From: a phage | Strand: one strand, 5' to 3' | Sequence record: PX655591.1 | Length of the DNA stretch: 38,819 bases | Shown: one piece after another, positions 5,366 through 38,094 of the stretch | Layout of the letters: the number at the start of each line of letters is the position of its first letter | Numbering within the stretch: the first letter of the stretch is position 1 | Made by a program: the position numbers and the translations under genes | The notes under the pieces: generated by a model | Told to the model about the DNA's origin: nothing | What the model saw: only the letters and a program-made list of their open reading frames with translations | Databases searched by the model: none

Positions 5366-5388
5366 CCTAAACTATCACTATAGGATTA
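5366..5388 (+). promoter_or_regulatory. Phage RNAP promoter (CCTAAACTATCACTATAGGATTA)
   Basis: Conserved 23-mer; position matches T7 phi1.1 promoters near the primary replication origin. Confidence 0.85.
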
Positions 5389-12441: not shown

Positions 12442-14454
12442 ATGGACTTAAGTAACATATATGGGTCTGACATCGAGACCAACGGTCTCCTTGATACAGT
12501 CTCCCAGTTTCACTGTGGGGTCCTGATTAACGCCGAGTCGAATGAGACCCTTAAGTATGGGGTAGCTCCGATGGTTGGTATCGTCGGTGGCTTCAAAGAG
12601 TATGTGCGTAAAGTGGAAGAGATTGCCGCATCGCCTGATGGTATGCTGGTATTCCACAACGGTATCAACTATGACGTCCCAGCTATTGACAAACTGAAAC
12701 GTCTGTACTTTGGGAAACGTTTTAACTTCCCGAAACACAAGATGATTGATACCTTGGTGCTGGGCCGCTTGATGTATCCAAACATTAAGTTCTCAGACAT
12801 GGGGGCGGTGAAAGCTGGACGTCTTCCACCTAATATGATGGGACGCCAGTCTCTTGAGGCTTGGGGCTATCGTCTCGGTGAGATGAAGGGCGAGTACAAA
12901 CACGATTACGTTGCCAAGTGCAAGGCCGAAGGTATCGAATATAAGGCTGGGGACGAATGGTTGTTCCCGTCTCAGGAGATGCTGGACTATAACGTTCAAG
13001 ACGTTGTGGTCACACTGGCGTTGTTCAAGAAGTTCCTGACTGACAAGTATTACTTCCAGTCTGAAAAGTTCGCTTTCGAGCAGATTTATGCGTTGCGTCT
13101 GGAACATGATGCTGCGTGGACCTGTGCGAAGATGGAACGTAACGGCTATCCGATGAACACAGAGATGGTCGAAGGCTTATATCGTGAACTCACCATCAAA
13201 CGTGCGGAGTTACTGGACAAGCTGCGCTCTACTTTCGGTAGCTGGTATGCACCGAAGGGAGGCAAGGAGTTCTTCAGACATCCACGGACAGGTAAGGATC
13301 TTCCGAAGTATCCGCGAGTCGTGTACCCTAAGGTCGGTGGCATCTTTAAGAAGCCGAAGAACAAAGCCCAACGCTTAGGTCTTGAACCTTGTGAACTCGA
13401 TACGCGAGACACAATGGAAGGAGCACCATTCACTCCAATCACTTACGTTGAGTTTAATCCGGGAAGCGGCGACCACTTAGCGAAAGTCCTGATGGAGCGT
13501 GGCTGGGAGCCTGTGGACTTCACTGACACAGGGAAACCTGTAGTCGATGACGAGACGTTAGAACACGTTAAGTTACCAGACGCAGAGGCTCAGGCTTGCG
13601 TAGAGCTTGTCCGTGAGTATCTGGTGGTCCAGAAGCGCATCGGTCAGGCTGCTGAAGGTAAGAACGCATGGTTGAAACTTGTAGGTCCAGACGGACGTAT
13701 GCACGGTTCAATCAACACATGTGGTGCAGTGACCGGACGTGCGACCCATAGCTCACCAAACATGGCTCAGGTCCCGGCTAACGGTGCTCCATATGGTGAG
13801 ACTTGCCGTGGTGCTTTCGGTGCAGCGTGGAACAAGAAGGATGGTAAGCCAGACCCTTGGATTCAAGTAGGTGTGGATGCTTCAGGTCTTGAGCTTCGTT
13901 GTCTGGGGAACCGAGCTGCTCCGTTTGATGGTGGTGCATATGCGAAGACTGTAGTCGAAGGTGACATCCACTGGGCAAACGCAGTCAACGCTGGGTTAGC
14001 ACCTAACGTCCCACGCGATAAGTCGAGCCACGACCATGATGCTTTCCGTAACAACGCTAAGACGTTCATCTATGCGTTCCTGTATGGTGCAGGGGCCGCT
14101 AAGATTGGACTGATAGTCGGAGGTGGTAAGAAGGAAGGTTCAGCTCTCATGAAGAAATTCATTGAGGGTACACCAGCCATCAAGGACCTCAGGGAAGCTG
14201 TGAGTAATACGTTAATCTCAGACTCTAAGTGGGTAGATGGTGAGAACATCGTGAAGTGGAAACGTCGCTGGCTGAAAGGTCTGGACGGTCGACGCATTCA
14301 CATCCGGTCTCCACACTCAGCACTTAACGCCTTACTTCAGGGGGATGGTGCGGTAGTCTGTAAGCACTGGATTGTTGAGGTAGAGCGTATGCTGGAAGCC
14401 GAAGGATACGTCCACGGCTGGGATGGAGACTTTGCGTACATGGCATGGGTGCAT
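12442..14454 (+). CDS. DNA polymerase (gene 5-like) exon 1, 671 codons, ends ...FAYMAWVH
   Basis: Recalled identity to T7 DNAP including thioredoxin-binding loop KVGGIFKKPKNKAQR; ORF ends exactly before the motif C Asp codon. Confidence 0.95.
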
Positions 14455-15052
14455 TAACATCATGGTGCACATTAAATCTGGTGAACTCGGTGAACTCCTA
14501 ATGGGACAATACCGAGCCAAGCCATAGGGAGGATGTATGAGAGGCAAGAAGTTAATTCTTGAGGCCACTGAGACTGGCTGCATAATCCCTACGTCACATA
14601 AATTGAATCAGGATGGATACTTCCGAAAGAGGACTAACGGTGTCCTTGAGATGTATCATAGAACTGTATGGATTAAAGCTAATGGTCCAATACCTGACGG
14701 TTTCGAAGTAGACCACAAGTGTCGTAATAGAGCTTGTTGCAACGTCGAACATCTACAAGTATTAGACCGGGACTCACACTTAGTCAAGACCAACAAAGAG
14801 CGATACGCTGCTAGGAAGCTAGAAGCACGAGACTACTGGGTAGAGACTGGGTGTACTGGAACGAAGTTAGCCGAAGTGTTCAATGTGTCGTTCTCAGCCG
14901 CCTGTGGGTGGATTAGAGAGTGGAAGGCGTAGAGACTATCCGAAAGGAGTAGGGCCGTGGGTGAGATTCCCACGTAACCCGAAGCGCCAGACAGTCACCT
15001 CAAAGACTGATGATATAGTCCGACACTTCCAGTAATGGGAGAATACAGAAAG
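14455..15052 (+). mobile_element. Group I intron (about 598 nt) in the DNA polymerase gene, carrying an HNH endonuclease ORF
   Basis: Exon 1 ends in U that can pair with G of intron GUGCAC (14465-14470); AGACUAU (14933-14939) pairs with AUAGUC (15015-15020) as P7; G at 15052; downstream exon restores DNAP C-terminus in frame. Confidence 0.8.
14537..14932 (+). CDS. Intron-encoded HNH homing endonuclease, 131 aa
   Basis: HNH motif GPIPDGFEVDHKCRNRACCNVEHLQV; RBS GGGAGGA; ORF stops 1 nt before the P7 core element. Confidence 0.85.
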   Translation: MRGKKLILEATETGCIIPTSHKLNQDGYFRKRTNGVLEMYHRTVWIKANGPIPDGFEVDHKCRNRACCNVEHLQVLDRDSHLVKTNKERYAARKLEARDYWVETGCTGTKLAEVFNVSFSAACGWIREWKA

Positions 15053-15208
15053 GATGAGTTACAGATTGCTTGTCGTACTCAAGAAATAGCAGAACGTACA
15101 GTAGAAATTGCTCAACTTGCTATGCGTAAGGTGGGCGAGTTCTATAACTTTAAATGTGTCCTTGATACCGAAGGTAAGATTGGACCAACGTGGAAGGAGT
15201 GTCACTAA
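15053..15208 (+). CDS. DNA polymerase exon 2, 51 codons plus stop (DELQIACRT...GPTWKECH)
   Basis: Matches recalled T7 DNAP C-terminus DEIQVGCRT...GPNWAICH; no start codon or RBS of its own at the junction. Confidence 0.85.
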   Translation, partial: DELQIACRTQEIAERTVEIAQLAMRKVGEFYNFKCVLDTEGKIGPTWKECH

Positions 15209-24872: not shown

Positions 24873-24895
24873 CCTTAACTATCACTATAGGGACT
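24873..24895 (+). promoter_or_regulatory. Phage RNAP promoter (CCTTAACTATCACTATAGGGACT), phi13-like
   Basis: Conserved 23-mer; intergenic. Confidence 0.85.
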
Positions 24896-24924
24896 ATAGG
24901 CCCTTAAGGTTATAAGGAGACATT

Positions 24925-25395
24925 ATGTATATTCGTAAGGCTACGGAACCAGATGTCCACTACTTTCTGTGGCATCTTTCAGCAGATGATGTTAATGAAT
25001 GCAAAGCAAACTATGGGTCAACCGTGGGTCTCTCTGAAAGACTGCTTAAGCACCTATCTCCGTCATCTGTGGTTTTAACGAACGGTGTAGGCGAAGTGTT
25101 TGCCTATGGTGGAAACCAAGGGGATAACGTATGGTTCTTGACTTCGGGTCTGGTCTACAAGCTGGGGCCTAAAGAGAAGCGAGAGTTCATAAAGTGTATC
25201 TCTGAGTACAGGGACTTAATGTTAGACCAATACGGGACCATCTGGAACTACGTGTGGTCAGGCAATAAGTCTCACATTAAATTCTTGAAGTTGCTTGGCG
25301 CTAAATTCCATGAGGATTGGACTATCAGCCCGGTAACTGGTGAGCGTTTTCAATTATTCACTATCTCTAAGGAGGACGTATGTGTGAACCCATAA
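24925..25395 (+). CDS. Internal virion protein A (gene 13-like), 156 aa
   Basis: Position and size; RBS AAGGAGA. Confidence 0.7.
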   Translation: MYIRKATEPDVHYFLWHLSADDVNECKANYGSTVGLSERLLKHLSPSSVVLTNGVGEVFAYGGNQGDNVWFLTSGLVYKLGPKEKREFIKCISEYRDLMLDQYGTIWNYVWSGNKSHIKFLKLLGAKFHEDWTISPVTGERFQLFTISKEDVCVNP

Positions 25396-25967
25396 GTATC
25401 GGCATGGGTATCATGGCTGTAGCCGGGGCCACTATGTCCGCATCCCAGCAGGCCAAGGCCGAAGGTGCAGCAATTGACGCTCAGAACCGACAGGCTCAGG
25501 AAATGGTTAAGCAGATGAACTACTCTGACGCCAACCTGAGGATGCAGGAGCGAGACCTGAAGGAGCAGCAGATGGCTGAACTGACAGAGATCACGCTCAA
25601 CGGTATCCGCAATCAGGGTATGGTCCGAGCTGCGGTGGCTGAGTCAGGTCTGGAAGGTAACTCTATGGACAGGATTGAACGTCAGGTCGCAGGAGATACA
25701 GTCAAGGAGCGAGTAGGGATTACCGAAAGTTACAACCGCGACTATGCGGCTATCTTCGGGAACCGTATCGCCAACATTGAGAACACAAAGTCTGCTATCC
25801 GTGGTCAAGGTAAAATCATCAAGACCAGCCCACTGGCTCATGCACTTAATGTTGCTAACGCCGGGGCGCAAGGCTACGCCGCTGGTAAGTCAATCTCTGG
25901 AGAGTCCAGCTCTGGTGGTTCTGCACCAATTAGTGCTGCTAAGGGCACACCTACAGGTCATAGCTAA
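25380..25967 (+). CDS. Internal virion protein B (gene 14-like), 195 aa
   Basis: N-terminal MC... and GNSMDRIERQ similar to recalled T7 gp14 (GSSMDRIKR). Confidence 0.85.
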   Translation: MCEPISIGMGIMAVAGATMSASQQAKAEGAAIDAQNRQAQEMVKQMNYSDANLRMQERDLKEQQMAELTEITLNGIRNQGMVRAAVAESGLEGNSMDRIERQVAGDTVKERVGITESYNRDYAAIFGNRIANIENTKSAIRGQGKIIKTSPLAHALNVANAGAQGYAAGKSISGESSSGGSAPISAAKGTPTGHS

Positions 25968-25978
25968 GAGGAGGACTA

Positions 25979-28261
25979 ATGGCTAGTAATATTGAATCAG
26001 CTCTGGCTAATCGGACTATGGGTCGTGGCAGAGCGCCGGGTAAAACTATCGCCGTCAACTATCAAGCAGCCAACGTTCAGGCTCCGACTGGTGACTCTGG
26101 TCTGGCTCGTGCGTTAACAAACTTCGTTGAGTCTGGTACTGGATTGTACAAGCAGTTCAAAGACGAGGAGAAGACCAGAGCTGACGAGCGGTCTAACGAG
26201 ATTATCCGTAAGCTGACACCTCAGCAAAGACGTGAGGCTATCCAGAACGGCACGTTGCTATATCATGATGACCCTTACGCTATGGAAGCACTTCGAGTCA
26301 AGACGGGCCGTAACGCTGCCTTTGCGGTGGATGACGAGATTAACGTTAAGATTCAGAACGGCGAGTTTCGTACACGTCAGGACATGGAAGAGTATCGCCA
26401 CCAGCGACTACAGGATGCCGCTAAGTCCTATGCTGAAGAGGCGGGTATTAACCCTACCGACGAGTTCTTCCAGCGCGGATTCAACGATAACATCACTGAC
26501 CGAAACATAGCTATCTACGGGTCCTTCAATAAGTATTTCAGCAAGCAGTCTGAAGAGACAGCAATGTTGAACACTCGTATTGAGTTGAACTCGTTCCTTA
26601 ACGATGGGGACCTGATGCGTTCGCCTGAGTCTGGAAAGACCTTCATGGCCTACCTTCGTGATGGACTGACGACTGCTGCTATACCTTCGGACCAGAGAGC
26701 ACGAGAGGTCATCGCCCAGACGGTCCGTGACGCAATCCAGAAGTCAGGAGGTTCAAACTTCCTACAGCAAGTCCGTGGCGAGCGTATCACCCTTAACGGT
26801 GTTGACGCTACCATCGAAGAGATTGTAGGACCTGACATCTTCAATGCTGCTATGGTTGAGGCCCAAGGTACTGAGTATAAACTGGTGGCTAAGTATCAGG
26901 AAGACTTGGCGTTAGGCGTTCAGTCTGCGATTCTTCAGGATGACCCAACCATTGGTCTTGCCCAGATTCAGAAACTCAAGGAGCAGAACAACCTGCTTCA
27001 GCCGGGTGAAGAACTCACGCCTCAGCGTCAGATGCTTATTAATGCCGAAGCCAGCTTACTGGAAGCGGTCAAGCGTAAGTCTGCTGAACAGGCGAAGGAG
27101 AACACTAAGTTAATCCAGACTCAGAACAAGCAACTGGTCATCGACCAAGTGTATCAGCGACGTCTGGCTGGGGACAACGTGTCCACCAACTATGAGGACC
27201 TTCCAGTCTCAGATGCTACAGGCGAGTTCAAGCGTTCTGACATGAACAACTATGCGTCTGCCAAGCTACAGCAGATTGACCAGATGGACATCCCTGAGGC
27301 TGCTAAAGATGCTCAGAAGGTGGCATTGTTAAGAGCGGATACTAACAACGGTCCGTTCCGTAATGCCTTCCAGACGCTGACTCAGGACGCTGCTGGCGAG
27401 TGGCAAGCTGCGGTCATCCGTGGACAGTACGACCCAGACAAGATGAAACGCTTCGAGTCTCTTCGTCGTGCCTACACTCAGGACCCTTCAAGTTTTGCTG
27501 CTCTGTATCCTGACCAAGCTCAGTTGTTCTCTACGTTCGACCAGATGGACAAGATGGGTCTTGACCCTCAGACGATGATTGAAGCTGATAAGCAAGCTGC
27601 AAGTCAAAGCCGTGAGATGCGAATGGAGTCAGACAAGGCGTGGCAGGAGTTGAAGAATGACTCCAAGAACACCCAGTTGTCTCGCCTCCCAACGTCTCTG
27701 GACTCAAGTGCTCGTAAGGTCTGGGACTCATGGTACTATCGTACAGGTAACGCTGACGCTGCGACTCAGCAGACTCAACGCTGGCTTAACGAGAACACCG
27801 TAACGTTCCAGTCTGAAGGTTCTGACGGTAAGTCAATCGGCATGGTATCCAAGCACCAGCTTATGGTCGGGGATAACCCTGAGTCGTGGCAGGTAGGTCG
27901 AGACATTATCGACACCGCCCGTAAGCAGATCATTAAGGCCAACCCTTGGGTAGTGAACTCTCAGTTGTCCGTTGTTGAACAGAACGGCTCTATCTTCCTC
28001 CAAGACGCTACAGGGACTATTCGTATTCTCTACGATAAAGAACTTGTAGGTAAACTCTACCGCGAACAACAGCAGAAGGCACAGGATGCCGCATATGCTC
28101 AGGCAGAACGTGACGCTAACAAGCGAGCGCGTATCGTCGGGACTAAAGCTGCTGGTGATAAACGTCGAGCTGACCGAGAGGCCAACATCGAGAAGCGCGG
28201 TGGGATGTACAATGACGTCTCACTGGAGGGTATCGCAAACGCACTAATCGGTAAGGAGTAA
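25979..28261 (+). CDS. Internal virion protein C (gene 15-like), 760 aa
   Basis: Size and position; RBS AGAGGAGG. Confidence 0.85.
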   Translation: MASNIESALANRTMGRGRAPGKTIAVNYQAANVQAPTGDSGLARALTNFVESGTGLYKQFKDEEKTRADERSNEIIRKLTPQQRREAIQNGTLLYHDDPYAMEALRVKTGRNAAFAVDDEINVKIQNGEFRTRQDMEEYRHQRLQDAAKSYAEEAGINPTDEFFQRGFNDNITDRNIAIYGSFNKYFSKQSEETAMLNTRIELNSFLNDGDLMRSPESGKTFMAYLRDGLTTAAIPSDQRAREVIAQTVRDAIQKSGGSNFLQQVRGERITLNGVDATIEEIVGPDIFNAAMVEAQGTEYKLVAKYQEDLALGVQSAILQDDPTIGLAQIQKLKEQNNLLQPGEELTPQRQMLINAEASLLEAVKRKSAEQAKENTKLIQTQNKQLVIDQVYQRRLAGDNVSTNYEDLPVSDATGEFKRSDMNNYASAKLQQIDQMDIPEAAKDAQKVALLRADTNNGPFRNAFQTLTQDAAGEWQAAVIRGQYDPDKMKRFESLRRAYTQDPSSFAALYPDQAQLFSTFDQMDKMGLDPQTMIEADKQAASQSREMRMESDKAWQELKNDSKNTQLSRLPTSLDSSARKVWDSWYYRTGNADAATQQTQRWLNENTVTFQSEGSDGKSIGMVSKHQLMVGDNPESWQVGRDIIDTARKQIIKANPWVVNSQLSVVEQNGSIFLQDATGTIRILYDKELVGKLYREQQQKAQDAAYAQAERDANKRARIVGTKAAGDKRRADREANIEKRGGMYNDVSLEGIANALIGKE

Positions 28262-28263
28262 AC

Positions 28264-28713
28264 ATGAAGAACGGGACAGCCAGTGAGAGACTGGCAGAAC
28301 TGTCAGTAGCTGAAGAGTCTGGCTGTATCCGATTCACAGGCCACTTAGACGGAGAAGGATATGGAAGGATAATGGTAGCTAGGGTTAAGTATATGGCACA
28401 TCGTCTCTCCTACTCCCTAAATAATGGGCCAATACCAGATGGCTATGTTGTTAGGCATAAATGTGATAATCCATCATGCATAAATCCTGAACACCTTGAA
28501 GTAGGAACGCAGGCTGACAACATTGCAGATAAGGTTTCCAGAGGCCGACAGGCAAGAGGGAGTGGAGCAGGCAGAGCTATACTGACAGAGGAATCTGTTA
28601 GGGAGATACTCTCCAGTCCATTAAAAGTATCTGAGCTTTCCACATTATACGGGGTAAGCGTCGTTTCCATACGAAATATATTGAGGAGAAAGACATGGCA
28701 ACACGTGGTGTAA
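28264..28713 (+). CDS. Free-standing HNH homing endonuclease with C-terminal helix-turn-helix-like tail, 149 aa
   Basis: GPIPDGYVVRHKCDNPSCINPEHLEV HNH motif; paralogous to intron ORF (shared ..GPIPDG..V.HKC.N..C.N.EHL); inserted between genes 15 and 16. Confidence 0.85.
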   Translation: MKNGTASERLAELSVAEESGCIRFTGHLDGEGYGRIMVARVKYMAHRLSYSLNNGPIPDGYVVRHKCDNPSCINPEHLEVGTQADNIADKVSRGRQARGSGAGRAILTEESVREILSSPLKVSELSTLYGVSVVSIRNILRRKTWQHVV

Positions 28714-31700
28714 GGAACGCAAATCCGGGCAATATCCGTAAGTCCAAAGACCAATGGGAAGGTGCTATAGGTGATGATGGTGAATTCGTTATCTTCGACA
28801 GCCCTGAATCCGGGGTCCGAGCATTAGCAAAAAACCTTCAAAGCTACGGTCGCCAAGGCTACGACTCAATCGAGAAGATTATCAACCGTTGGGCGCCTCC
28901 GAACGAGAACGACACTCAGTCCTACATCAACTCGGTTGTATCTGCGACTGGTATTCCAGCTACCCAGAGTCTCGACCTCTCTGACCCGGACACACTGTCT
29001 TCTCTGGCGCAAGCTATCGGCTACCACGAGACTGGTTCCCGGTATGACCCTGAGGTCTACAAGACTGGCGTCTCTCGTGCCTTAAGTGGTGCGGGAGGTA
29101 TAAGCCCAAAGACTCCACCAGTAAGCGCGAACGTATTTGACGCACTCACGGAAGGCCTCAAGGCTAAACCTAAAGTATCTCTGGGTGAGAATCTTCCGAC
29201 CGCTGCTGGTCTGAACATTGAGGGTCAAGCGCCTGAAGCTCCCAACGAATCGTTCGGTGAGATGTTCTATAAGGCTACTGGAGAGACCATGCAGGAACGA
29301 GAGGACCGCTCTACGTGGTTCGGTTTCGGTGCTGCTACAGAAGCTGAAGTGAAGAACTCTATGGTCGGCGTGGCTATCCGAGCTGGTCAGACTGAGGACT
29401 CACTTGATGTCATTGGAGATGTGTTCAACCCTACCAGATGGAACAACCATAAGTGGACTCGCGAGGAGCTGGATCAGATTCGTAACGCTGGGGTTCTGCC
29501 TCAGTATTATGGAGTCATTACTGGTGGGTCTCCTCAGAACCTGACCGAGCTTATTAACTTAGCGCTTGAGAACCAGAAGTTGGACCAAGAGAAGGCCAAG
29601 GCTGGGACTGGTGCTCAGTTAGCTGCGGGTGTGATTGGCGCTGGTGTGGACCCTCTGACCTACGTTCCTATTGCTGGGCAGGTAGGTAAAGGTGGGAAGC
29701 TAGTCAACAAGATGTTCACTGTGGCTGCTCAGTCTGGTGCTCTGGCTGGGGCATCCGAGATTGCTCGAACCTCAGTTGCTGGTGGTGACGCTCATGTGGC
29801 TGAGGCAATTATGGGTGGTGCTCTCTTCGGTGGGGGAATGACAGCTATCGGGGACGCTATCGGCAAGGCCTTAGGCAAGTCAACCAACGAGTTCGCTGGG
29901 CCAGCCACACGTCTGGAAGCCCGTGAGACTGCACGTAATGTTGATGGTCAGGACCTGTCTCGTATGCCAATCCGTGAAGGAGAGGAGACTTTTAGTCATC
30001 AAGGCGTTAAGTTCGCTGATGTTCCGAATGAGCCGGGTAGTGTACGACTGGAGGATGGTTCAATCCTGATTGGTGAGAACCCTCTGAACCCTAAGACACG
30101 TCAAGTTTTTGACGAAGTGATTGAGCCTGAACGTGCCGCTGCTGGTGTGAACCTTGGTGGTCTGACTGAGATTGGCTTGAAGCTGCTTCGGTCAGAGAAC
30201 CCTGAGATTCGTGGAGTAGCTGCTGACTTAGTGCGTTCACCGACTGGTATGCAGTCTGGGTCCTCAGGTAAAATCGGGACCACTGCGTCAGACGTATTCG
30301 AGAGACTTCGTGCTGTGGACCATCGGTTCTACAACGACATCGACGATGCGGTTACTGAGGCACTAAAGGACCCGTACTTCCAGACAGCATTCTGGCGAGA
30401 CTCTGGCGCATTCCGTCAGGACATCTACCAGCGTGTGTCTATGGCTATCGAGGATGGTAGCGGAAACCTGAAGGCTGAACTGACTCCGGGAGAACTGAAA
30501 GTCTATGACCTGCTGAAGAACCAGTTTGACGCCAAGCGTGAGATGATGGAGAACCCAGCTATGTTTGGTCGGCCAGACGCTCAGTCTATCTTTCCGGGTA
30601 GCCGCTTCAAGGGAACCTACGTCCCTCATGTGTATAGCAAACAGATGAAGGAGCTGTACATCAAGGAGCTTGGGAGTCCAGAGGCGTTGCAGGAGGCCAT
30701 CAAGAAGTCATGGTTGACCAGCTATGCGTCTCGACCTGAAGTCAAGAAACGCGTGGACGAGGCACTCTTAGAGGCTGACCCTACGTTGACTCCAGAGGGA
30801 CTTGCTGCTGCGGTCGATAAGTACGCCAACGATAAGGCTTACGGTATCTCTCACACCGAGCAGTTCGAACGTTCATCCGTAATGGAAGAGAACATCAACG
30901 GTCTGGTTGGTCTGGAGAACAACAGCTTCCTTGAGGCTCGTAACCTGTTCGATAGTGATATGTCAATCGTCCTGCCTAACGGTCAGACCTTCAGTGTCAA
31001 CAACCTGCGTGAGTGGGACATGGATAAGATTGTCCCTGCTTATAACCGTCGAGTTAATGGTGACATTGCTATCATGGCTGGTACAGGAAAGACCACGAAG
31101 GAAATGAAGGACTTGGTTGAGACCATGATGAACAAGGCTGGGGATGACGGTAAGTTGAAAGGTGAGGTATCTACCTTACGTGACACCTTGAAGATTCTCA
31201 CTGGTCGTGCTCGACGTGATGGTGCTGATGATGCAGCCTTCGCTACCGTGATGCGTACAATGACAGACCTATCGTTCTTCGCTAAGAATGCCTACATGGG
31301 TGTTCAGAACTTAACGGAGATTGGTGGTATGCTGGCTCGCGGCAATGTTCGTGCGCTGCTGCATGGAGTCCCGATGTTCCGTGACCTAGCCTTCCGTAAC
31401 AAGAAGGTAGGGGCCTCAGAGATTAAGGACCTGCACAACGTTATCTTCGGTAAGGAACTGGATGACTCAATCCGTCCGTCAAAGCAGGATGTTATAGACC
31501 GACTACGATCTTACAGCTCCCTGAGTAAACCTACGGCTACGGCTCTAGGCTCTGCCAAGTATTACACTGGTGAACTTGCAGTACGCTCTCCGTTCACTAA
31601 AGTCCTCAACGGTACGACCAACTACCTGTTAGATGCTGGACGTCAAGGCTTCTTGTCTGACATCGTAGAGCATAGCCTGACTGGTAGTAAGCGTAAGTTC

Positions 31701-32591
31701 GATGACCGCTGGCTGAAGACCGCTGGTATCTCTGACGAGCAGTGGAAGGGCATTAAGTCCCTAATCCGTGAGTCAGTGACTCGTGGTCCAGACGGGAAGT
31801 ACACCATCAAGGATAAGAAGGCGTTCAGTCAGGACCCAAGGGCTATGGACCTGTGGCGTATGGGCGACACCATCGCTGATGAAACGTTACTCCGTCCTCA
31901 TAAGCTGTCCAACATGGACGCCAAGGCTTATGGTCCTCTCGCTAAGACTGTCCTTCAGTTTAAGAACTTCGTCATCAAGTCCATCAATGGGCGAACCATG
32001 CGAACCTTCTATAACGCCACGAAGAACAACCGAGCGATGGACGCTGCCCTGTCCACTGTGATGTCTATGGGTCTTGCTGGTATCTACTACATGGCTCAGG
32101 CTCACGTCAAGGCTTACGCTATGCAGGACGGTCGAGACAGAGATTACCTCAAGCAAGCTCTGGACCCAACGATGATTGGCTATGCGGCCCTGTCCCGTAG
32201 TTCACATCTTGGTGGGCCACTTGGGGTAGCTAACATTCTTGGTGGCATCGCTGGATACGAGGACACTAAGATGCTTCGTTCGTCTATCCTCCCGCGTTCA
32301 CCTACAGAGAAGCCTGAACGTGCCATAGCAGATGGTGCGGCTACAAGTGACCCTGTGATGAATGTCGTCGGTAACTTCTTGGAGCAGGTCCCGGCTTTCG
32401 GCTATGCTGCTAACGTTGGTGCCTCGGCGTACAACTTGGCTGGCTACCTCAAGGCTGATACTCGTGTCAATGAGCGAGACTACATGACAGGGATGTATAA
32501 CACGTTCCGAGAACTTGTCCCGAACGACCCGATTACCCAGAAGCTGCTACTTGGGACGTTTGAGGAGCAAGGTATCCACATAAAGGACTAA
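28695..32591 (+). CDS. Internal virion protein D (gene 16-like), 1298 aa, with non-T7 N-terminal domain
   Basis: Middle and C-terminal regions match recalled T7 gp16 (ARETARN...DLVRSPTGMQSG...GTYVPHVY...AYGISH); N-terminal about 120 aa (RNANPGNIR...) lacks the T7 SLT motif. Confidence 0.9.
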   Translation: MATRGVRNANPGNIRKSKDQWEGAIGDDGEFVIFDSPESGVRALAKNLQSYGRQGYDSIEKIINRWAPPNENDTQSYINSVVSATGIPATQSLDLSDPDTLSSLAQAIGYHETGSRYDPEVYKTGVSRALSGAGGISPKTPPVSANVFDALTEGLKAKPKVSLGENLPTAAGLNIEGQAPEAPNESFGEMFYKATGETMQEREDRSTWFGFGAATEAEVKNSMVGVAIRAGQTEDSLDVIGDVFNPTRWNNHKWTREELDQIRNAGVLPQYYGVITGGSPQNLTELINLALENQKLDQEKAKAGTGAQLAAGVIGAGVDPLTYVPIAGQVGKGGKLVNKMFTVAAQSGALAGASEIARTSVAGGDAHVAEAIMGGALFGGGMTAIGDAIGKALGKSTNEFAGPATRLEARETARNVDGQDLSRMPIREGEETFSHQGVKFADVPNEPGSVRLEDGSILIGENPLNPKTRQVFDEVIEPERAAAGVNLGGLTEIGLKLLRSENPEIRGVAADLVRSPTGMQSGSSGKIGTTASDVFERLRAVDHRFYNDIDDAVTEALKDPYFQTAFWRDSGAFRQDIYQRVSMAIEDGSGNLKAELTPGELKVYDLLKNQFDAKREMMENPAMFGRPDAQSIFPGSRFKGTYVPHVYSKQMKELYIKELGSPEALQEAIKKSWLTSYASRPEVKKRVDEALLEADPTLTPEGLAAAVDKYANDKAYGISHTEQFERSSVMEENINGLVGLENNSFLEARNLFDSDMSIVLPNGQTFSVNNLREWDMDKIVPAYNRRVNGDIAIMAGTGKTTKEMKDLVETMMNKAGDDGKLKGEVSTLRDTLKILTGRARRDGADDAAFATVMRTMTDLSFFAKNAYMGVQNLTEIGGMLARGNVRALLHGVPMFRDLAFRNKKVGASEIKDLHNVIFGKELDDSIRPSKQDVIDRLRSYSSLSKPTATALGSAKYYTGELAVRSPFTKVLNGTTNYLLDAGRQGFLSDIVEHSLTGSKRKFDDRWLKTAGISDEQWKGIKSLIRESVTRGPDGKYTIKDKKAFSQDPRAMDLWRMGDTIADETLLRPHKLSNMDAKAYGPLAKTVLQFKNFVIKSINGRTMRTFYNATKNNRAMDAALSTVMSMGLAGIYYMAQAHVKAYAMQDGRDRDYLKQALDPTMIGYAALSRSSHLGGPLGVANILGGIAGYEDTKMLRSSILPRSPTEKPERAIADGAATSDPVMNVVGNFLEQVPAFGYAANVGASAYNLAGYLKADTRVNERDYMTGMYNTFRELVPNDPITQKLLLGTFEEQGIHIKD

Positions 32592-32609
32592 ACTATCACT
32601 ATAGGAAAC
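32587..32609 (+). promoter_or_regulatory. Phage RNAP promoter (ACTAAACTATCACTATAGGAAAC), phi17-like
   Basis: Conserved 23-mer overlapping gp16 stop; followed by GGGAC...GTCCC leader hairpin. Confidence 0.85.
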
Positions 32610-32655: not shown

Positions 32656-34956
32656 ATGGCTAGTAAGGTTCTTATTAATTACCCTGTAGGTCAGGACCAG
32701 TATGAAATTCCGTTCCCGTATCTGGCTAGACCTTTTGTCGTAGTGACTCTGGTGAACTCTATGGACCCTTCCATGAACAAGACTCTTGTGGTTGGTAGTG
32801 GCTATCGGTTTATCACAGCCACAGTAATTGAGATTCTTGAGCCAACAGATGGCTTCGACATTGTTCGCATCCAGCGCTACACATCATCAACACGCATTGT
32901 AGACTTCAAGGATGGATCACCTCTTGTTGCTAATGACCTAAATGTTGCTGAGATTCAGTCAATACACATCGCAGAAGAGGGAAGGGACTACGTGCTTGAC
33001 CTAATGGATGAGGCCGCTACTGTTGCCACAAAAGCTGCTGCCGACTCTCAGAAGTACCGTGATGAGGCTGAAGGTTTTAAGAACGACATTAAAGGTGATG
33101 CTGACGCCGTGTTTAACTATAAAGAGGCGGCTTGGGAGGCGATGCTACGAGCTGAGATGGCTGCGTCAACTGCTAACGCTACCCAGATTGTCAGGATTGA
33201 TGACATCGTGTCTCACATCCCGGGCGGTACAACTGGTCAAGCTGACATCTCCACAGCCTTGAATGCGGCGCTTGTGTTGTATGCTGGCACAGGAACAACG
33301 CTACTTGGGACTAAGACATCTCGCTACAGGCAGGATGACACAATAATTGCTCAGTCAGGTGTGACACTTGACTATAATGGAGCTTGGGTAGATGATAACG
33401 TTCAGTCTTCCATCCCAACATCAGGTGGCCGACCGGGTCACACCTTTCAGATTTACGGAGTTGATAGGTTCAAGCTCAGGAACTTCGTGTACAATATGCT
33501 TCCTACAAGAAAGGTTCAATCTGATCCAGACGGTCCACAGCCTACTGTTATGTGGATTGGTGGTCAATACTTAGGGGATGCAACAACAAGTAACATCGAG
33601 GTTAGTGGTATTGACGGGGAAAGTGGAACGCCTCTTGCTGGCGGCTTTCAGATGTGTGGCATGGGGGAGCTTAACGGTCTGTGGTATCATGACTGCAACT
33701 GGGCAAACAACGGATGGCGTTGGGGTTGTAACTTTGAGTATGGACTTATGCCAGAAAGCCCAGTGACAAACCCTAACTTTGAGAACGGCCGCCACCCGTA
33801 TAACCTACTGATTGAGCGTGTAAACGGTCGAAACATTCGCACCTGTGAAGGCTTCTGGCGGTCAGCATCATGTTTTAACGTGTCCTTCAGGGATTGCTTC
33901 AGCTTCAATGTGAGTAACGCTATACGCTACTTCAGTGGGGACCGTGGCATCACTCGCTATAACCAAAAAGTGACATTCAGTAACATGTCTTGCAGAAATA
34001 CGAACTTGGGCCGTCCTGATAATATTGTATGGGCTATCGTTACGAACCGAGATGGCTCAACTGGTGAGGTGCTACCTTCATGGACAAACCAACACCACAA
34101 CTTAGCGTTCATCAACTGCGAGTTCTGGCAAGAGGGACGTTACGGGTCCAGCTGTATGAGACTAGTTGGTAACTTAGGGAAGACTCTGGTAGCGAACTGC
34201 ACCATTAAAGGAGGATTCTTTGGGTTGTGGCAACAAGGCTCTGGTCCTGCTAACTATGACGCAAAGAATAGTCTTCTGGTTATTAACACTGAGTTCATTC
34301 AGAACTACCAGTCTCTGCGTATCGTCGACACCACTGGCTCCATGATTATCCACAGTAGTTTCACAGACCAGCAGTATTCCGCTACGTTTGGTGAGACAGC
34401 TGCAGTTGCGCTCTCCGGTACATCAAACTTTAAGATGTTCGGATGTAATTTGAACCACAGTACGGCGGCTGGTTCGATGGACTGCCCTCTGATGGCCTTG
34501 GTTGGGACTAATAGTAACCTATACCTTCATGCTAATGATTTTATAGTTTACTCTGGTAAGACAGCGATAAGAGGAGCGTCAGACCTATCGCCTGTATATG
34601 GCTCAGCTAATACATGCAACGGAAAGATTATCGACGACGGTCAGCGCATCATTGGGGAGGTAGGAGCCTCAAGCGCTCCAGTTGTTCCCACTGTTACTTC
34701 AAACGTGATTTCTTTCAACCAGTCAGCTGTATTTAATGTTACCAGCGCCATTGTTGTAAACGAGGTTACTGGGGGACGAGAGGGGGATAAGATTACATTC
34801 CGTGGCAGGACTGGAGGTGCGAGTATCACCTTAAGGCATACGGCAGTCACTGGAAACACAAGAATCATCACAAAGTCTGGTACAGATTTAGTGGTAACTG
34901 GTAACTCAGCGTCAGTGACTCTAATGAAGTTCGCTGACGGATGGGTTGAGATGTAA
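32656..34956 (+). CDS. Tail fibre / tailspike (gene 17-like), 766 aa: T7-like N-terminal attachment domain plus unrelated C-terminal receptor-binding domain
   Basis: N-terminal about 150 aa resembles recalled T7 gp17 (IPFPYLAR.FVVVTL...NDLNVAEIQ..HIAEE); remainder not T7-like. Confidence 0.85.
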   Translation: MASKVLINYPVGQDQYEIPFPYLARPFVVVTLVNSMDPSMNKTLVVGSGYRFITATVIEILEPTDGFDIVRIQRYTSSTRIVDFKDGSPLVANDLNVAEIQSIHIAEEGRDYVLDLMDEAATVATKAAADSQKYRDEAEGFKNDIKGDADAVFNYKEAAWEAMLRAEMAASTANATQIVRIDDIVSHIPGGTTGQADISTALNAALVLYAGTGTTLLGTKTSRYRQDDTIIAQSGVTLDYNGAWVDDNVQSSIPTSGGRPGHTFQIYGVDRFKLRNFVYNMLPTRKVQSDPDGPQPTVMWIGGQYLGDATTSNIEVSGIDGESGTPLAGGFQMCGMGELNGLWYHDCNWANNGWRWGCNFEYGLMPESPVTNPNFENGRHPYNLLIERVNGRNIRTCEGFWRSASCFNVSFRDCFSFNVSNAIRYFSGDRGITRYNQKVTFSNMSCRNTNLGRPDNIVWAIVTNRDGSTGEVLPSWTNQHHNLAFINCEFWQEGRYGSSCMRLVGNLGKTLVANCTIKGGFFGLWQQGSGPANYDAKNSLLVINTEFIQNYQSLRIVDTTGSMIIHSSFTDQQYSATFGETAAVALSGTSNFKMFGCNLNHSTAAGSMDCPLMALVGTNSNLYLHANDFIVYSGKTAIRGASDLSPVYGSANTCNGKIIDDGQRIIGEVGASSAPVVPTVTSNVISFNQSAVFNVTSAIVVNEVTGGREGDKITFRGRTGGASITLRHTAVTGNTRIITKSGTDLVVTGNSASVTLMKFADGWVEM

Positions 34957-35529: not shown

Positions 35530-35973
35530 ATGCTCGAATTTTTAAAGAGAGCGGCTCCGTGGTTACTTGCAGCAGTGATGTTTGCTGGTGGCTACCACAC
35601 CGCTAACAATAAGTGGGAGGCTAAGGTCAATGAAGAATACACCTCGAACCTTAAGGCATCGGAGGATACAAGGCTTGCTGTCCAAGCTGAAGTCAACAAA
35701 GTGTCCAAACGGTTTCAGGACGAAATATCCTCGCTGGAAGGCAGCACTGATAGGATTATTGCTGACCTTCAGTCTGACAATAAGCGGTTGCGCATCCGAG
35801 TCAAACCAACGAGTGGAACCACGCAAAGTGACGGTCGATGCGTCATTGATGGTTACGCCGAACTTGACGAACGAGATGTTAAACGTCTTATCGCCATCGG
35901 ACTGAAAGGGGACAAATGGATTAAGGCACTTCAAGACACTGTGAGAGCCTTACAGCAAGATAAGGAGAAATAA
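35530..35973 (+). CDS. Rz-like i-spanin (gene 18.5-like), 147 aa
   Basis: MLEFL...EGSTDRIIADLQSDNKRLRIRVK...ALQDT matches recalled T7 gp18.5. Confidence 0.9.
   Translation: MLEFLKRAAPWLLAAVMFAGGYHTANNKWEAKVNEEYTSNLKASEDTRLAVQAEVNKVSKRFQDEISSLEGSTDRIIADLQSDNKRLRIRVKPTSGTTQSDGRCVIDGYAELDERDVKRLIAIGLKGDKWIKALQDTVRALQQDKEK
35630..35905 (+). CDS. Rz1-like o-spanin lipoprotein (gene 18.7-like) embedded in the +1 frame of gene 18.5, 91 aa
   Basis: PRWKAALIGLLLTFSLTISGCASES lipobox and LMVTPNLTNEMLNV match recalled T7 gp18.7; start taken at ATG 35630. Confidence 0.8.
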   Translation: MKNTPRTLRHRRIQGLLSKLKSTKCPNGFRTKYPRWKAALIGLLLTFSLTISGCASESNQRVEPRKVTVDASLMVTPNLTNEMLNVLSPSD

Positions 35974-36359
35974 TGCTAACCGACTTTACGTACTCAGATG
36001 GGAAGTTGTTCAGGAAGGGACGCGAAGTCGGCTCAATGGACAACCACGGGTATCTACGGACTACGGTCAACTACCGTAAGTATCTCGTACACCGTCTAAT
36101 CTACAAGCTACACAACCCTGAGTTCGACCTTGAGTCAGACCTCGTGATTGACCACATCAATCGCGACCGAACAGACAACAGGATTGAAAATCTTCGGGCT
36201 GTGACTAAGGCTGAAAACAACAGGAACAGGGACCTACCGAGAGGCGTGTCTTATTGCAAACAGACCGGGAAGTGGAAGGCTATCCAACCTCGCTGGCTCG
36301 GTCGATTTGATACTGAACAGGAGGCCATAGATGCAGTTAGCGCCGCAAGAGAGGAATGA
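35973..36359 (+). CDS. Free-standing HNH endonuclease with AP2-like DNA-binding domain, 128 aa
   Basis: [31 protein letters not shown] motif; [30 protein letters not shown]2-like; inserted between 18.5 and 19. Confidence 0.8.
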
Positions 36360-38094
36360 GGCAGTAACCAATCGGATGAAAGAAGACTTCGTGTTCTTCT
36401 TATTTGTCCTCTGGAAAGCACTTAGCCTCCCAGTACCAACCAGATGCCAGATAGATATCGCCCGTAAGCTCTCCGCTGGGGACAACAGGCGCTTCATCCT
36501 ACAGGCGTTCCGTGGTATCGGGAAGTCCTTCATTACGTGTGCATTCGTTGTCTGGAAGCTATGGAACAACCCAGACTTGAAGTTCATGATTGTGTCGGCC
36601 TCAAAGGAACGAGCTGATGCTAACTCCACCTTCATCAAGCGAATCATCGACCTCATGCCTCAGCTTCAGGAACTCAAACCTAAGCAGGGACAGCGAGATG
36701 CGGTTATCAGCTTCGACGTTGGACCAGCCAAGCCAGACCACTCACCTTCGGTTAAGTCCGTTGGCATCACTGGCCAGTTGACTGGTAGTCGTGCTGACAT
36801 CCTGATTGCCGATGACGTGGAGGTTCCGAACAACTCAGCGACTCAGGCCGCACGAGACCGTCTGTCAGAGCTTGTGAAAGAGTTCGACGCTATCCTGAAG
36901 CCGGGAGGTACAATCATCTATCTGGGTACTCCTCAGACCGAGATGACCTTGTATCGTGAGCTGGAAGGTCGTGGATATACCACTACTATCTGGCCAGCCC
37001 GCTACCCACGCGATAAGAAGGACTGGCAGTCTTACGGCGACCGTCTGGCTCCTATGCTTCAGGCAGATCTTGAAGAGGACCCTGAGTCCTTCTACTGGCG
37101 TCCGACCGATGAAGTTCGATTCGATGATACGGACCTGAAGGAACGTGAGCTGTCCTATGCTAAAACTGGCTTCGCTCTACAGTTCATGCTTAACCCGAAC
37201 CTGAGTGATGCTGAGAAGTACCCTCTGAAGCTACGTGACCTTATCGTAGCAGACTTGGACCCAGCATCCAGCCCAATGGTCTACCAATGGTTGCCTAACC
37301 CTCAGAACAAGCGTGAGGACGTTCCTAACGTTGGACTTATGGGTGACTCATACCACACGTATCAGACTGTAGGTTCTGCCTTCAGTTCGTACACCCAGAA
37401 GATTCTGGTCATTGACCCTAGTGGTCGTGGTAAGGATGAAACTGGCTATGCTGTACTGTACCAGCTCAACGGCTACATCTTCGCTATGGAAGTTGGTGGT
37501 ATGCGTGGTGGTTATGAGGACTCTACGCTGGAAGCTCTGGCTAAGATTGGTCGTAAGTGGAAGGTCAACGAATACGTCATTGAGGGTAACTTCGGTGATG
37601 GTATGTACCTTGAGCTATTCAAGCCTGTAGCGGCCCGTATCCATCCTGCGGCTGTAACTGAAGTGAAGAGTAAGGGTCAGAAAGAACTACGAATCTGTGA
37701 CGTTCTGGAGCCTATCATGGGGTCTCACCGCCTTATCGTGAACGCTGCTGCTATCGTCCAAGACTATCAGACAGCCTCTGATAAGGATGGTGTTCGTAAC
37801 CCTATCTACTCTCTCTTCTACCAGATGACCCGTATCTCTCGTGAACGGGGAGCCTTGGCACACGATGACCGACTTGATGCTCTGGCTATCGGTGTACAGT
37901 TCTTCGTTGAGTCTATGGCTAAGGATGCCAACAAAGGCGAACGTGAAGTCACTGAGGAGTGGCTGGAGGAACAGATGGAGAACCCACGGAAAGGCTTCGA
38001 GTCCATCCACACTGAGTTCTGGGACAATGGGGTCCGGGTGACTCACGATACGGACTACGAGCTGGGACTCGGGTCGTACGTTACGTTCCACTAG
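36331..38094 (+). CDS. Terminase large subunit (gene 19-like), 587 aa
   Basis: Extensive recalled identity to T7 gp19 ([59 protein letters not shown]); RBS AGGAGG. Confidence 0.97.

Follow-up and report, generated by a model that had tools for sequence, protein, structure and literature searches.

What is a free-standing HNH endonuclease gene doing between two conserved genes for internal virion proteins, and has it any bearing on the origin of the intron-borne HNH endonuclease of the same phage? The stretch of DNA that raises these questions, referred to here as the window (38,819 nt; sequence record PX655591.1), comes from a K1F-like phage of the T7 family, genus Kayfunavirus, positions 10000-32600 being around 93% identical to K1F and to other Kayfunavirus records. 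The initial annotation placed a 149-residue ORF between genes 15 and 16, overlapping the start of the latter by 19 nt, and both statements were confirmed. An ATG-to-TAA frame encoding 149 amino acids runs along the plus strand from 28264 to 28713; gene 15 (25979-28261) ends 2 nt upstream of it and gene 16 begins at 28695, so that positions 28695-28713 are shared. The identities of genes 15 and 16 were taken from annotated orthologous loci, for example that of CR44b with its genes 15, 7.7C and 16, in which the flanking ORFs are annotated as the internal virion proteins gp15 and gp16.

No phage promoter motif was found in the interval 24878-32592: the K1F-type motif is present seven times in the window, in no case within that interval, and the T3-type promoter consensus is absent from the window. 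Scans for sigma-70 promoters and for terminators around the endonuclease ORF yielded hits at chance level only. Since the interval lacks a promoter, the endonuclease gene should belong to the late transcript covering genes 13-16. A role as a terminase-associated HNH packaging factor was considered for the 15/16 ORF and rejected, as genes 18 and 19 are not in its vicinity; another HNH gene does sit near those two.

The protein matches the Pfam family HNH_3 (PF13392) over residues 43-86 with a score of 55 bits (E=6.2e-15), passing the gathering threshold of 24.8, and a database search recovered 552 homologues at E<=1e-5; both results lie far above chance expectation. Its best PHROGs are HNH endonuclease families, phrog_6254 ranking top both for this protein and for the intron-encoded HNH protein of the window. 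Searches of NCBIfam and of PDB sequences with the same protein gave no match and no meaningful match, respectively. In an alignment of 35 family sequences the invariant columns include C21, H65, C67, D68, C72, P75, H77 and N86, all of which are kept in the window protein, while N69 and N74 are nearly invariant. The HNH (His-Me finger) catalytic core, residues 43-86 (28390-28521, plus strand), is thus placed by the Pfam coordinates, by the family alignment and by structural matches to I-HmuI and I-PpoI; putative catalytic roles for its individual residues may be assigned by analogy. The initial annotation named loss of the catalytic His or Asn residues as grounds for discarding its reading, and H65, C67, D68, C72, H77 and N86 are all intact. 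Its assignment of the gene to the free-standing HNH, homing endonuclease-type class is supported by the HNH_3 match and by the family-invariant residues. The gene is real and intact, and the sequence suggests that the encoded enzyme is probably active.

The AlphaFold model of the protein (mean pLDDT 91) comprises N-terminal strands, a beta-beta-alpha core, a helix at residues 83-92, a linker and three helices within residues 109-140. The last of these elements form a C-terminal helix-turn-helix DNA-binding domain (28588-28683, plus strand). The protein has the modular layout of I-HmuI: an N-terminal DNA-binding beta-sheet, the HNH core, a linker helix and a C-terminal helix-turn-helix. Indeed, its fold resembles that of I-HmuI, the intron-encoded HNH nicking enzyme of Bacillus phage SPO1 (PDB code 1U3E), with only 14-21% sequence identity. 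Unlike I-HmuI, the window protein has an extra Cys/His cluster resembling the zinc sites of I-PpoI and of SMAD MH1 domains.

The manner in which the gene is fitted into its site was established by comparing the junctions of the window and 10 other insert-carrying genomes with those of 19 insert-free Kayfunavirus genomes, together with those of Esher7 and HC13, which also lack the endonuclease gene. Alignment and tabulation of these junctions define an optional insert of 433 nt (28262-28694, plus strand) which takes the place of the 3-8 nt spacer separating the gene 15 stop codon from the gene 16 ATG. The spacer is 3-5 nt long in the 19 empty genomes (CATA, ACATA, TAACA or CAT) and reads TAATAATA in Esher7 and HC13. 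All carriers examined have the insert at this boundary, after the stop of gene 15 and before the ATG of gene 16.

The insertion appears both to capture one ribosome-binding site and to supply another, the translational roles being read from sequence. The last codons of gene 15 contain a putative Shine-Dalgarno sequence, AAGGAG (28253-28258, plus strand), positioned 7 nt before the gene 16 ATG in the empty junctions, which read GGTAAGGAGTAA-CATA-ATGGCG, and 5 nt before the endonuclease ATG in the window. A putative replacement for gene 16, GAGGAG (28683-28688, plus strand), is embedded in the endonuclease codons for L141-R142-R143 (TTG AGG AGA), 6 nt before the gene 16 ATG, an arrangement common to all insert-carrying genomes. 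The ATG itself lies within the Thr-Trp codons of the endonuclease (ACA TGG), and the 19-nt overlap which follows (28695-28713, plus strand) is dual-coding: the endonuclease frame gives W-Q-H-V-V-stop and the gene 16 frame M-A-T-R-G-V-R. The codons for the endonuclease C-terminus, RRKTWQHVV*, hence provide gene 16 with its putative replacement binding site, its ATG and its first six codons. For the overlap to be possible gene 16 must use ACA, GTA and the rare AGG; given the codon usage of the phage itself, MATRGVR would be expected to give W-x-H-V-x-stop in the alternative frame with a probability of around 0.002. No significant RNA structure was detected at the start of the ORF, where 33 nt are identical between two of the allele classes described below (types A and B), or at the start of gene 16 (z values of -0.7, -1.1, +0.5 and +0.3).

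This C-terminal sequence is not peculiar to the locus. In the 35-sequence alignment RRxTWxH(V/I) is a family-wide C-terminal motif, present also in homologues from unrelated contexts. At the 7.7/gene 8 junction of T7 and in two Klebsiella phages the ribosome-binding site of the downstream gene likewise lies within the last codons of the endonuclease gene, with overlaps of 1-17 nt, and in the remaining two cases examined within the family the endonuclease gene adjoins its downstream neighbour or overlaps it by 0-4 nt.

The gene is patchily distributed at a single precise site, as would be expected of a homing endonuclease gene. The insert is present in 3 of 23 IMG/VR Kayfunavirus loci, and of 213 GenBank phage records 17 cover at least 80% of the junction query and so hold a copy of the same type as that in the window (type A). 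Six of these 17 records carry an allele at least 95% identical at the nucleotide level and the remaining 11 carry more distant type-A sub-alleles. Two further classes occupy the site: type B (55-57% amino acid identity) in TM1, GA2A, Pipis and Ro45lw, and type C (59%) in Ro103C3lw. Decayed copies are also seen. Frameshifted or truncated, otherwise near-identical alleles occur in other genomes (P0038, P0041, P0042, P0045 and P0056), with lengths of 130, 123, 122 and 90 amino acids, the 90-residue form, P0056, being present in 17 contigs.

Sequence comparison indicates that the history of the endonuclease is separate from that of the phage backbone. Alleles are 70-74% identical at the nucleotide level, while gene 15 of the same genomes is 86-97% identical, and at least 93.5% identical in all but one. 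The window allele in particular is 72-74% identical to those of CR44b, PH1061, ZH4 and EPr2, with dS values of approximately 1.6-1.75 (i.e. saturated), whereas the last 600 nt of gene 15 in these four genomes are 93.5-97% identical. Endonuclease dN/dS values of 0.05-0.15 show the gene to be under purifying selection. Composition also differs: the GC content is 45-46% within the insert and ORF as against 51-54% in the flanks, and AGA or AGG accounts for 10 of the 14 Arg codons of the endonuclease as against 13% in ten large phage genes.

The discordant history of the gene is accompanied by a co-inherited flank, with the caveat that this stretch of gene 16 is also met in genomes lacking the gene. 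In the window it spans some 150 nt from the start of gene 16 (28695-28845, plus strand) and constitutes a divergent 5' haplotype, a tract of co-conversion-like appearance that travels with the endonuclease gene. Within it, identity is 20-22 in every 30 nt to all 19 empty genomes and mostly 26-30 in 30 to type-A carriers; beyond it, identity to K1F-like empty genomes returns to ~90%. In SD6 and ZH4 the endonuclease gene is accompanied by a shorter linked tract of ~60-90 nt. On the other side, gene 15 is identical to K1F-like empty genomes at 29-30 of 30 nt right up to its stop codon and so is almost without markers, which makes the apparent one-sidedness of the tract uninformative. At a threshold of at least 90% identity the haplotype is found in 19 GenBank records, 16 with the endonuclease gene and three (Esher7, Esher6 and HC13) without, giving an association between haplotype and insert with an odds ratio of ~100 and p of ~1e-14, for which the counts of other haplotypes are approximate. 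Strict linkage of the tract to the insert was accordingly dropped, the haplotype being present in those three insert-free phages and, in mosaic form, in Monomax. Since it does occur without the insert, it could be an ordinary lineage variant that hosts the insert, and it does not serve to identify the target. The pattern in the flank fits co-conversion, or hitch-hiking, with occasional uncoupling, and does not of itself prove homing.

Two kinds of empty site can be distinguished. In two backbone clades the naive empty sites have ATGGCGACTCGTGGTATTCGC at the start of gene 16, which in the endonuclease frame reads W-R-L-V-V-F with no nearby stop. All carriers instead use GCA/GCG, ACA/GCA, GGT/GGA, GTA/ATA/GTG and AGG/AGA within codons 2-7, yielding W-Q-H-V-(V/E)-stop. 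The insert-free Esher7 and HC13 have ATGGCAACACGTGGTGTAAGG, matching the carriers even in the rare AGG, which makes up 4.8% of Arg codons, while Monomax is a mosaic in which GCGACT is followed by GTAAGG. Given the chance of around 0.002 attached to the carrier-like reading, descent from a carrier is more likely than a naive site for Esher7 and HC13, and we infer that empty sites of this kind arose from carriers by loss or partial conversion. The naive sequence ATGGCGACTCGTGGTATTCGC is absent from the window genome at up to three mismatches, and no second target candidate was found there.

How might these observations be accounted for? We consider it probable that the 15/16 gene specifies a homing endonuclease of the HNH (His-Me finger) class, free-standing and of the T7 gp7.7 type, which spreads by intronless homing. 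Transcription of the gene would be late, along with that of genes 13-16, and its translation would depend on the ribosome-binding site from which other phages express gene 16. For gene 16, the 3' end of the endonuclease gene would provide afresh a ribosome-binding site, an ATG and six initial codons; with the start of gene 16 re-created in this way, insertion should be harmless to the phage. In a mixed infection the enzyme would nick or cut the DNA of an insert-free relative within or close to its undivided 15/16 junction or the 5' end of gene 16, and recombinational repair from the carrier would transfer the endonuclease gene along with as much as ~150 nt of gene 16. The carrier would itself be protected, its junction being interrupted by the insert and its gene 16 differing at 7-8 of the first 24 positions. 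Intronless homing has been described for free-standing phage endonucleases, whose cuts may fall hundreds of bases away from the gene that encodes them (PMC2988022); with such distant cutting possible, placement of the target at the 15/16 junction is a guess. Our literature search found no paper on gp7.7-type enzymes.

Strong purifying selection is equally what a protein beneficial to the phage would display, so that a domesticated HNH protein must be weighed against a purely selfish one. Such a protein might nick DNA for recombination or replication, degrade host or competitor DNA, or exclude co-infecting relatives, and it could explain why constraint extends across very old alleles and why at least three allele classes are maintained at one site. 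A different HNH gene is found at the analogous gp15/gp16 junction in a Przondovirus, and endonucleases of T-even phages are known to cause marker exclusion (PMC2988022). A beneficial gene sits less easily with the finding that ~90% of close relatives lack it, that frameshifted and truncated alleles occur and that some genomes have apparently lost it; nor is it beside the terminase genes, and its composition and codon usage are foreign. On balance we regard domestication as unlikely, though deserving of mention. The decayed alleles invite another thought, namely that the window copy is itself an inactive or decaying remnant at a late stage of the homing cycle, kept only by linkage. Close alleles do have frameshifts in the helix-turn-helix domain, and the window allele has Leu at position 116, where the nearest alleles and ~88% of the family have Arg, so that this copy could be weakened. 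Against this, the full-length frame is intact, every invariant family residue is kept, Leu 116 is shared with two other intact homologues, P0107 and P0117, and dN/dS to the nearest alleles is within the low range given above. A remnant accordingly seems to us quite improbable, and we retain an intronless homing endonuclease as the preferred interpretation.

There remains the relationship to the intron of gene 5. The intron-encoded HNH endonuclease of the window (14537-14932, plus strand; 131 amino acids) is of the K1F gp5.3 type: it matches HNH_3 (E=9e-16) and the region is 95.6% identical at the nucleotide level to the gene 5/5.3 region of K1F. I-TslI of phiI/W31 and gp5.3 of K1F are both of this intron-encoded type. 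Rfam at gathering thresholds gave no match anywhere in the window, and the gene 5 intron emerges only at a relaxed threshold, at which the whole of the group I intron model RF00028 aligns to 14445-15042, with the ORF as a large insertion; the 35.8 bits of this match (E=2e-7) fall short of the gathering score of 50. The DNA polymerase frame halts after AYMAWVH at 14457 and restarts with DELQIACRT at 15053 (joined as AWVH|DELQ), and the K1F gp5.3 intron is documented (PMC4925675). The intron-encoded HNH enzymes of T7-like DNA polymerase genes belong to the same Pfam and PHROG families as the 15/16 protein, but are located in the gene 5 intron.

The initial annotation considered the two enzymes to share their HNH core, and in this it was correct: the motif NGPIPDGYVVRHKCDNPSCINPEHLEV of the 15/16 endonuclease has its counterpart in the intron ORF, and the pairwise alignment it had proposed as a check (BLASTP) gave 50% identity over 66 amino acids (63.5 bits, E=1e-18), confined to the N-terminal DNA-binding sheet and HNH core. 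It had further regarded the C-terminal helix-turn-helix tail as an addition by the free-standing copy. The tail is indeed present, but profile alignment of the family with the intron enzyme extends over 114 columns, to residue 123 of 131, with a probability of 98.5%; since the intron enzyme aligns through its C-terminal region, the tail is not a unique addition. By this alignment the 15/16 and intron enzymes are homologous over their whole length. They differ in the length of the linker (shorter in the intron enzyme), in the sequence of the C-terminal domain and in the last catalytic residue, which is Asn86 in the former and His in the latter.

Homology is one thing and direct ancestry another. 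The pair had been offered as a case of a free-standing endonuclease preceding intron invasion; such a pair would be a within-genome record of a free-standing endonuclease becoming intron-borne, the 15/16 enzyme perhaps targeting the gene 5 site as well. The 50% identity over sheet and core, the common architecture and the shared best PHROG are what might be expected of such a record. Yet each enzyme has closer relatives elsewhere. The 15/16 protein is nearer to T7 gp7.7 (112 bits, 47% identity over 128 amino acids) than to the intron enzyme, and the nearest free-standing relatives of the intron enzyme are gp5.3-type genes, which score 95-105 bits as against 62 bits for the 15/16 type. The C-terminal domains have diverged and the last catalytic residue is not the same. 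In the collaborative-homing or gene-invasion model a free-standing enzyme targets the intron insertion site (PMC3984707, PMC2988022). The gp5.3-type genes, which lie directly downstream of gene 5 in SD6, LM33_P1, T7M, SH2 and several Klebsiella phages, fit this model and the 15/16 gene, which lies 13.7 kb from the gene 5 intron insertion site, does not. The precursor called for by the model would be the closest relative of the intron enzyme and would sit beside the intron site or target it, a description that the 15/16 gene, by its relationships and position, does not match. When the empty 15/16 junction was compared by eye with the exon junction of gene 5 no obvious resemblance was apparent, and a short ACATGGCA match between the two was judged coincidental. 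The two elements are also distributed independently: K1F has only the intron, CR44b shows only the 15/16 gene among the records listed, PDP21P1 has both, and SD6 combines the 15/16 gene with a free-standing 5.3-type gene. We therefore set aside the proposal that the pair exemplifies invasion of an intron by a free-standing precursor, and consider it most improbable. The window adds no evidence on the origin of mobile introns, for which the informative comparison is that of the intron gene with the gp5.3-type genes beside gene 5.

Several known systems help to place the homing endonuclease gene favoured here. The genes of CR44b (7.7C), PH1061, CHRF_10022, EPr2 and ST20 share its 15/16 position, its length of 149 amino acids and its 19-nt overlap, and encode proteins with identities to that of the window of 84%, 79%, 99%, 83% and 99%, respectively. 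As far as we could find, same-locus Kayfunavirus genes are known only from annotation, several under the name 'HNH endonuclease' or 'predicted homing endonuclease', with a predicted helix-turn-helix feature noted for CR44b 7.7C. The window allele departs from them at a few positions, L116 among them. The similarity to T7 gp7.7 extends over the sheet, HNH core, linker, helix-turn-helix and RKTWxH motif, and the T7 gene abuts the essential gene 8, whose ribosome-binding site it contains in its last codons; it differs in sitting elsewhere, between 7.3 and 8, and in lacking the 19-residue N-terminal extension of the window protein. T7-like phages carry several free-standing HNH genes, among them that for T7 gp2.8, which is related to gp7.7. 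In T-even phages the Seg proteins are GIY-YIG enzymes and the Mob proteins are HNH enzymes with unrelated C-terminal domains. Like the window gene, Seg and Mob genes are intergenic between conserved genes, patchy in occurrence and co-inherited with their flanks (PMC2988022); these cause marker exclusion and their homing has been shown experimentally, whereas homing by the window gene is suggested by sequence.

The window gene is, then, an ordinary member of a well-known class, proteins 98-99% identical to its product being already on record, with annotation, from the same locus. As far as we know, the coexisting site states at gene 15/16 and the dual-coding junction are undescribed; they are neat but incremental. 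What the locus offers is a descriptive picture of a harmless insertion, in which the ribosome-binding site of gene 16 would be taken over and a replacement and start codon supplied by conserved C-terminal codons of the endonuclease. It also illustrates turnover, through its allele classes, its linked haplotype, its decayed copies and its footprint-bearing empty sites. We would go further only tentatively, and with some doubt, in proposing that the 15/16 junction of K1F-like phages is an arena displaying every state of the homing cycle, i.e. naive empty sites with ATGGCGACTCGTGGTATTCGC, at least three old competing allele classes, frameshifted copies, and footprint empties reading W-Q-H-V-V-stop with AGG, and that RRxTWxH(V/I) is a portable translation-start adaptor providing ribosome-binding site, ATG and microhomology. 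If the motif does act as such an adaptor, endonuclease genes could land on the start codon of an essential gene without harm. Should the window enzyme be active, recombination around genes 15 and 16 would be biased in mixed infections of K1F-like phages, a matter of relevance to phage engineering and therapy.

The first 33 nt of the free-standing HNH homing endonuclease gene between genes 15 and 16 (nt 28264-28296, ATGAAGAACGGGACAGCCAGTGAGAGACTGGCA) are the same, without a single difference, in the two allele classes of this gene, type A (that of the window) and type B. Beyond this stretch the two share only approximately 58% identity and their synonymous divergence is saturated. The identical start could represent a recombination end-point or could reflect translational constraint. 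A small hairpin, GCCAGU-GAGAG-ACUGGC, is present within the 33 nt, and the fold of this region was assessed for significance, yielding z values of -0.7 and -1.1, neither of them significant. Further downstream, codon 116 (nt 28609-28611) encodes Leu in the window allele and Arg in its nearest alleles, P0001 and P0004, as in around 88% of the family. The residue lies in helix 1 of the helix-turn-helix domain, where ..EIRSS.. becomes ..EILSS...

Occupation of the gp15/gp16 junction extends to another genus. In Klebsiella phage 175004 (Przondovirus; locus L040) a different HNH gene (171-578 of the locus), approximately 36% identical, is found at the analogous position between gp15-like and gp16-like genes, overlapping the start of the latter by 17 nt. 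The junction may be a recurrent landing site. Among genomes free of the 433-nt insert that bears the endonuclease gene, those of Esher7, HC13 and Monomax (loci L044, L045 and L048; junction at around locus position 700) have a gene 16 start of the type seen in carriers. Read in the endonuclease frame, this start gives W-Q-H-V-V-stop, including a rare AGG codon, and in Monomax the junction is mosaic, the switch falling within nt 10-15 of gene 16. All three junctions resemble footprints left by loss or by partial conversion.

A further gene (nt 35973-36359, + strand; 128 aa) matches HNH_3 with E=2e-17, bringing to three the number of HNH_3 genes in the window genome. Its upstream neighbour is an Rz-like gene (35530-35973), and at its 3' end it overlaps by 29 nt the start of gene 19 (36331-38094), which encodes the large terminase. 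Its product, the C-terminus of which is weakly AP2-like, shares just 31% identity with the 15/16 enzyme.

Nucleotide similarity of the window to K1F ends at approximately 32614, shortly 5' of gene 17 (32656-34956, + strand), and in Pfam the 766-aa product of that gene retains only the T7-type N-terminal tail-fibre domain. The part that binds the receptor is therefore unlikely to be the K1F endosialidase. The phage-promoter-like motif ACTATCACTATAGGGA(G/C/A) occurs seven times on the + strand of the window (at 5371, 16699, 19520, 20557, 24878, 32592 and 38194), against a chance expectation of none; a search of the window for the T3-type promoter consensus found it absent.

The group I intron of gene 5 (DNA polymerase) spans approximately 595 nt (14458-15052, + strand), protein continuity placing the exon junction at GTGCAT|GATGAG (AWVH|DELQ), and the insertion of around 400 nt within it is the HNH ORF. 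Kayfunavirus and its relatives (phage records including SD6, LM33_P1, T7M and SH2) show three states of the gene 5 region: with intron and endonuclease, as in K1F and the window; with a free-standing gp5.3-type endonuclease immediately 3' of gene 5, as in SD6 and LM33_P1; and with neither, as in SH3. Among free-standing proteins, those of the gp5.3 type are most closely related to the intron enzyme, and it is the comparison of the intron enzyme with these that is pertinent to models of intron origin.
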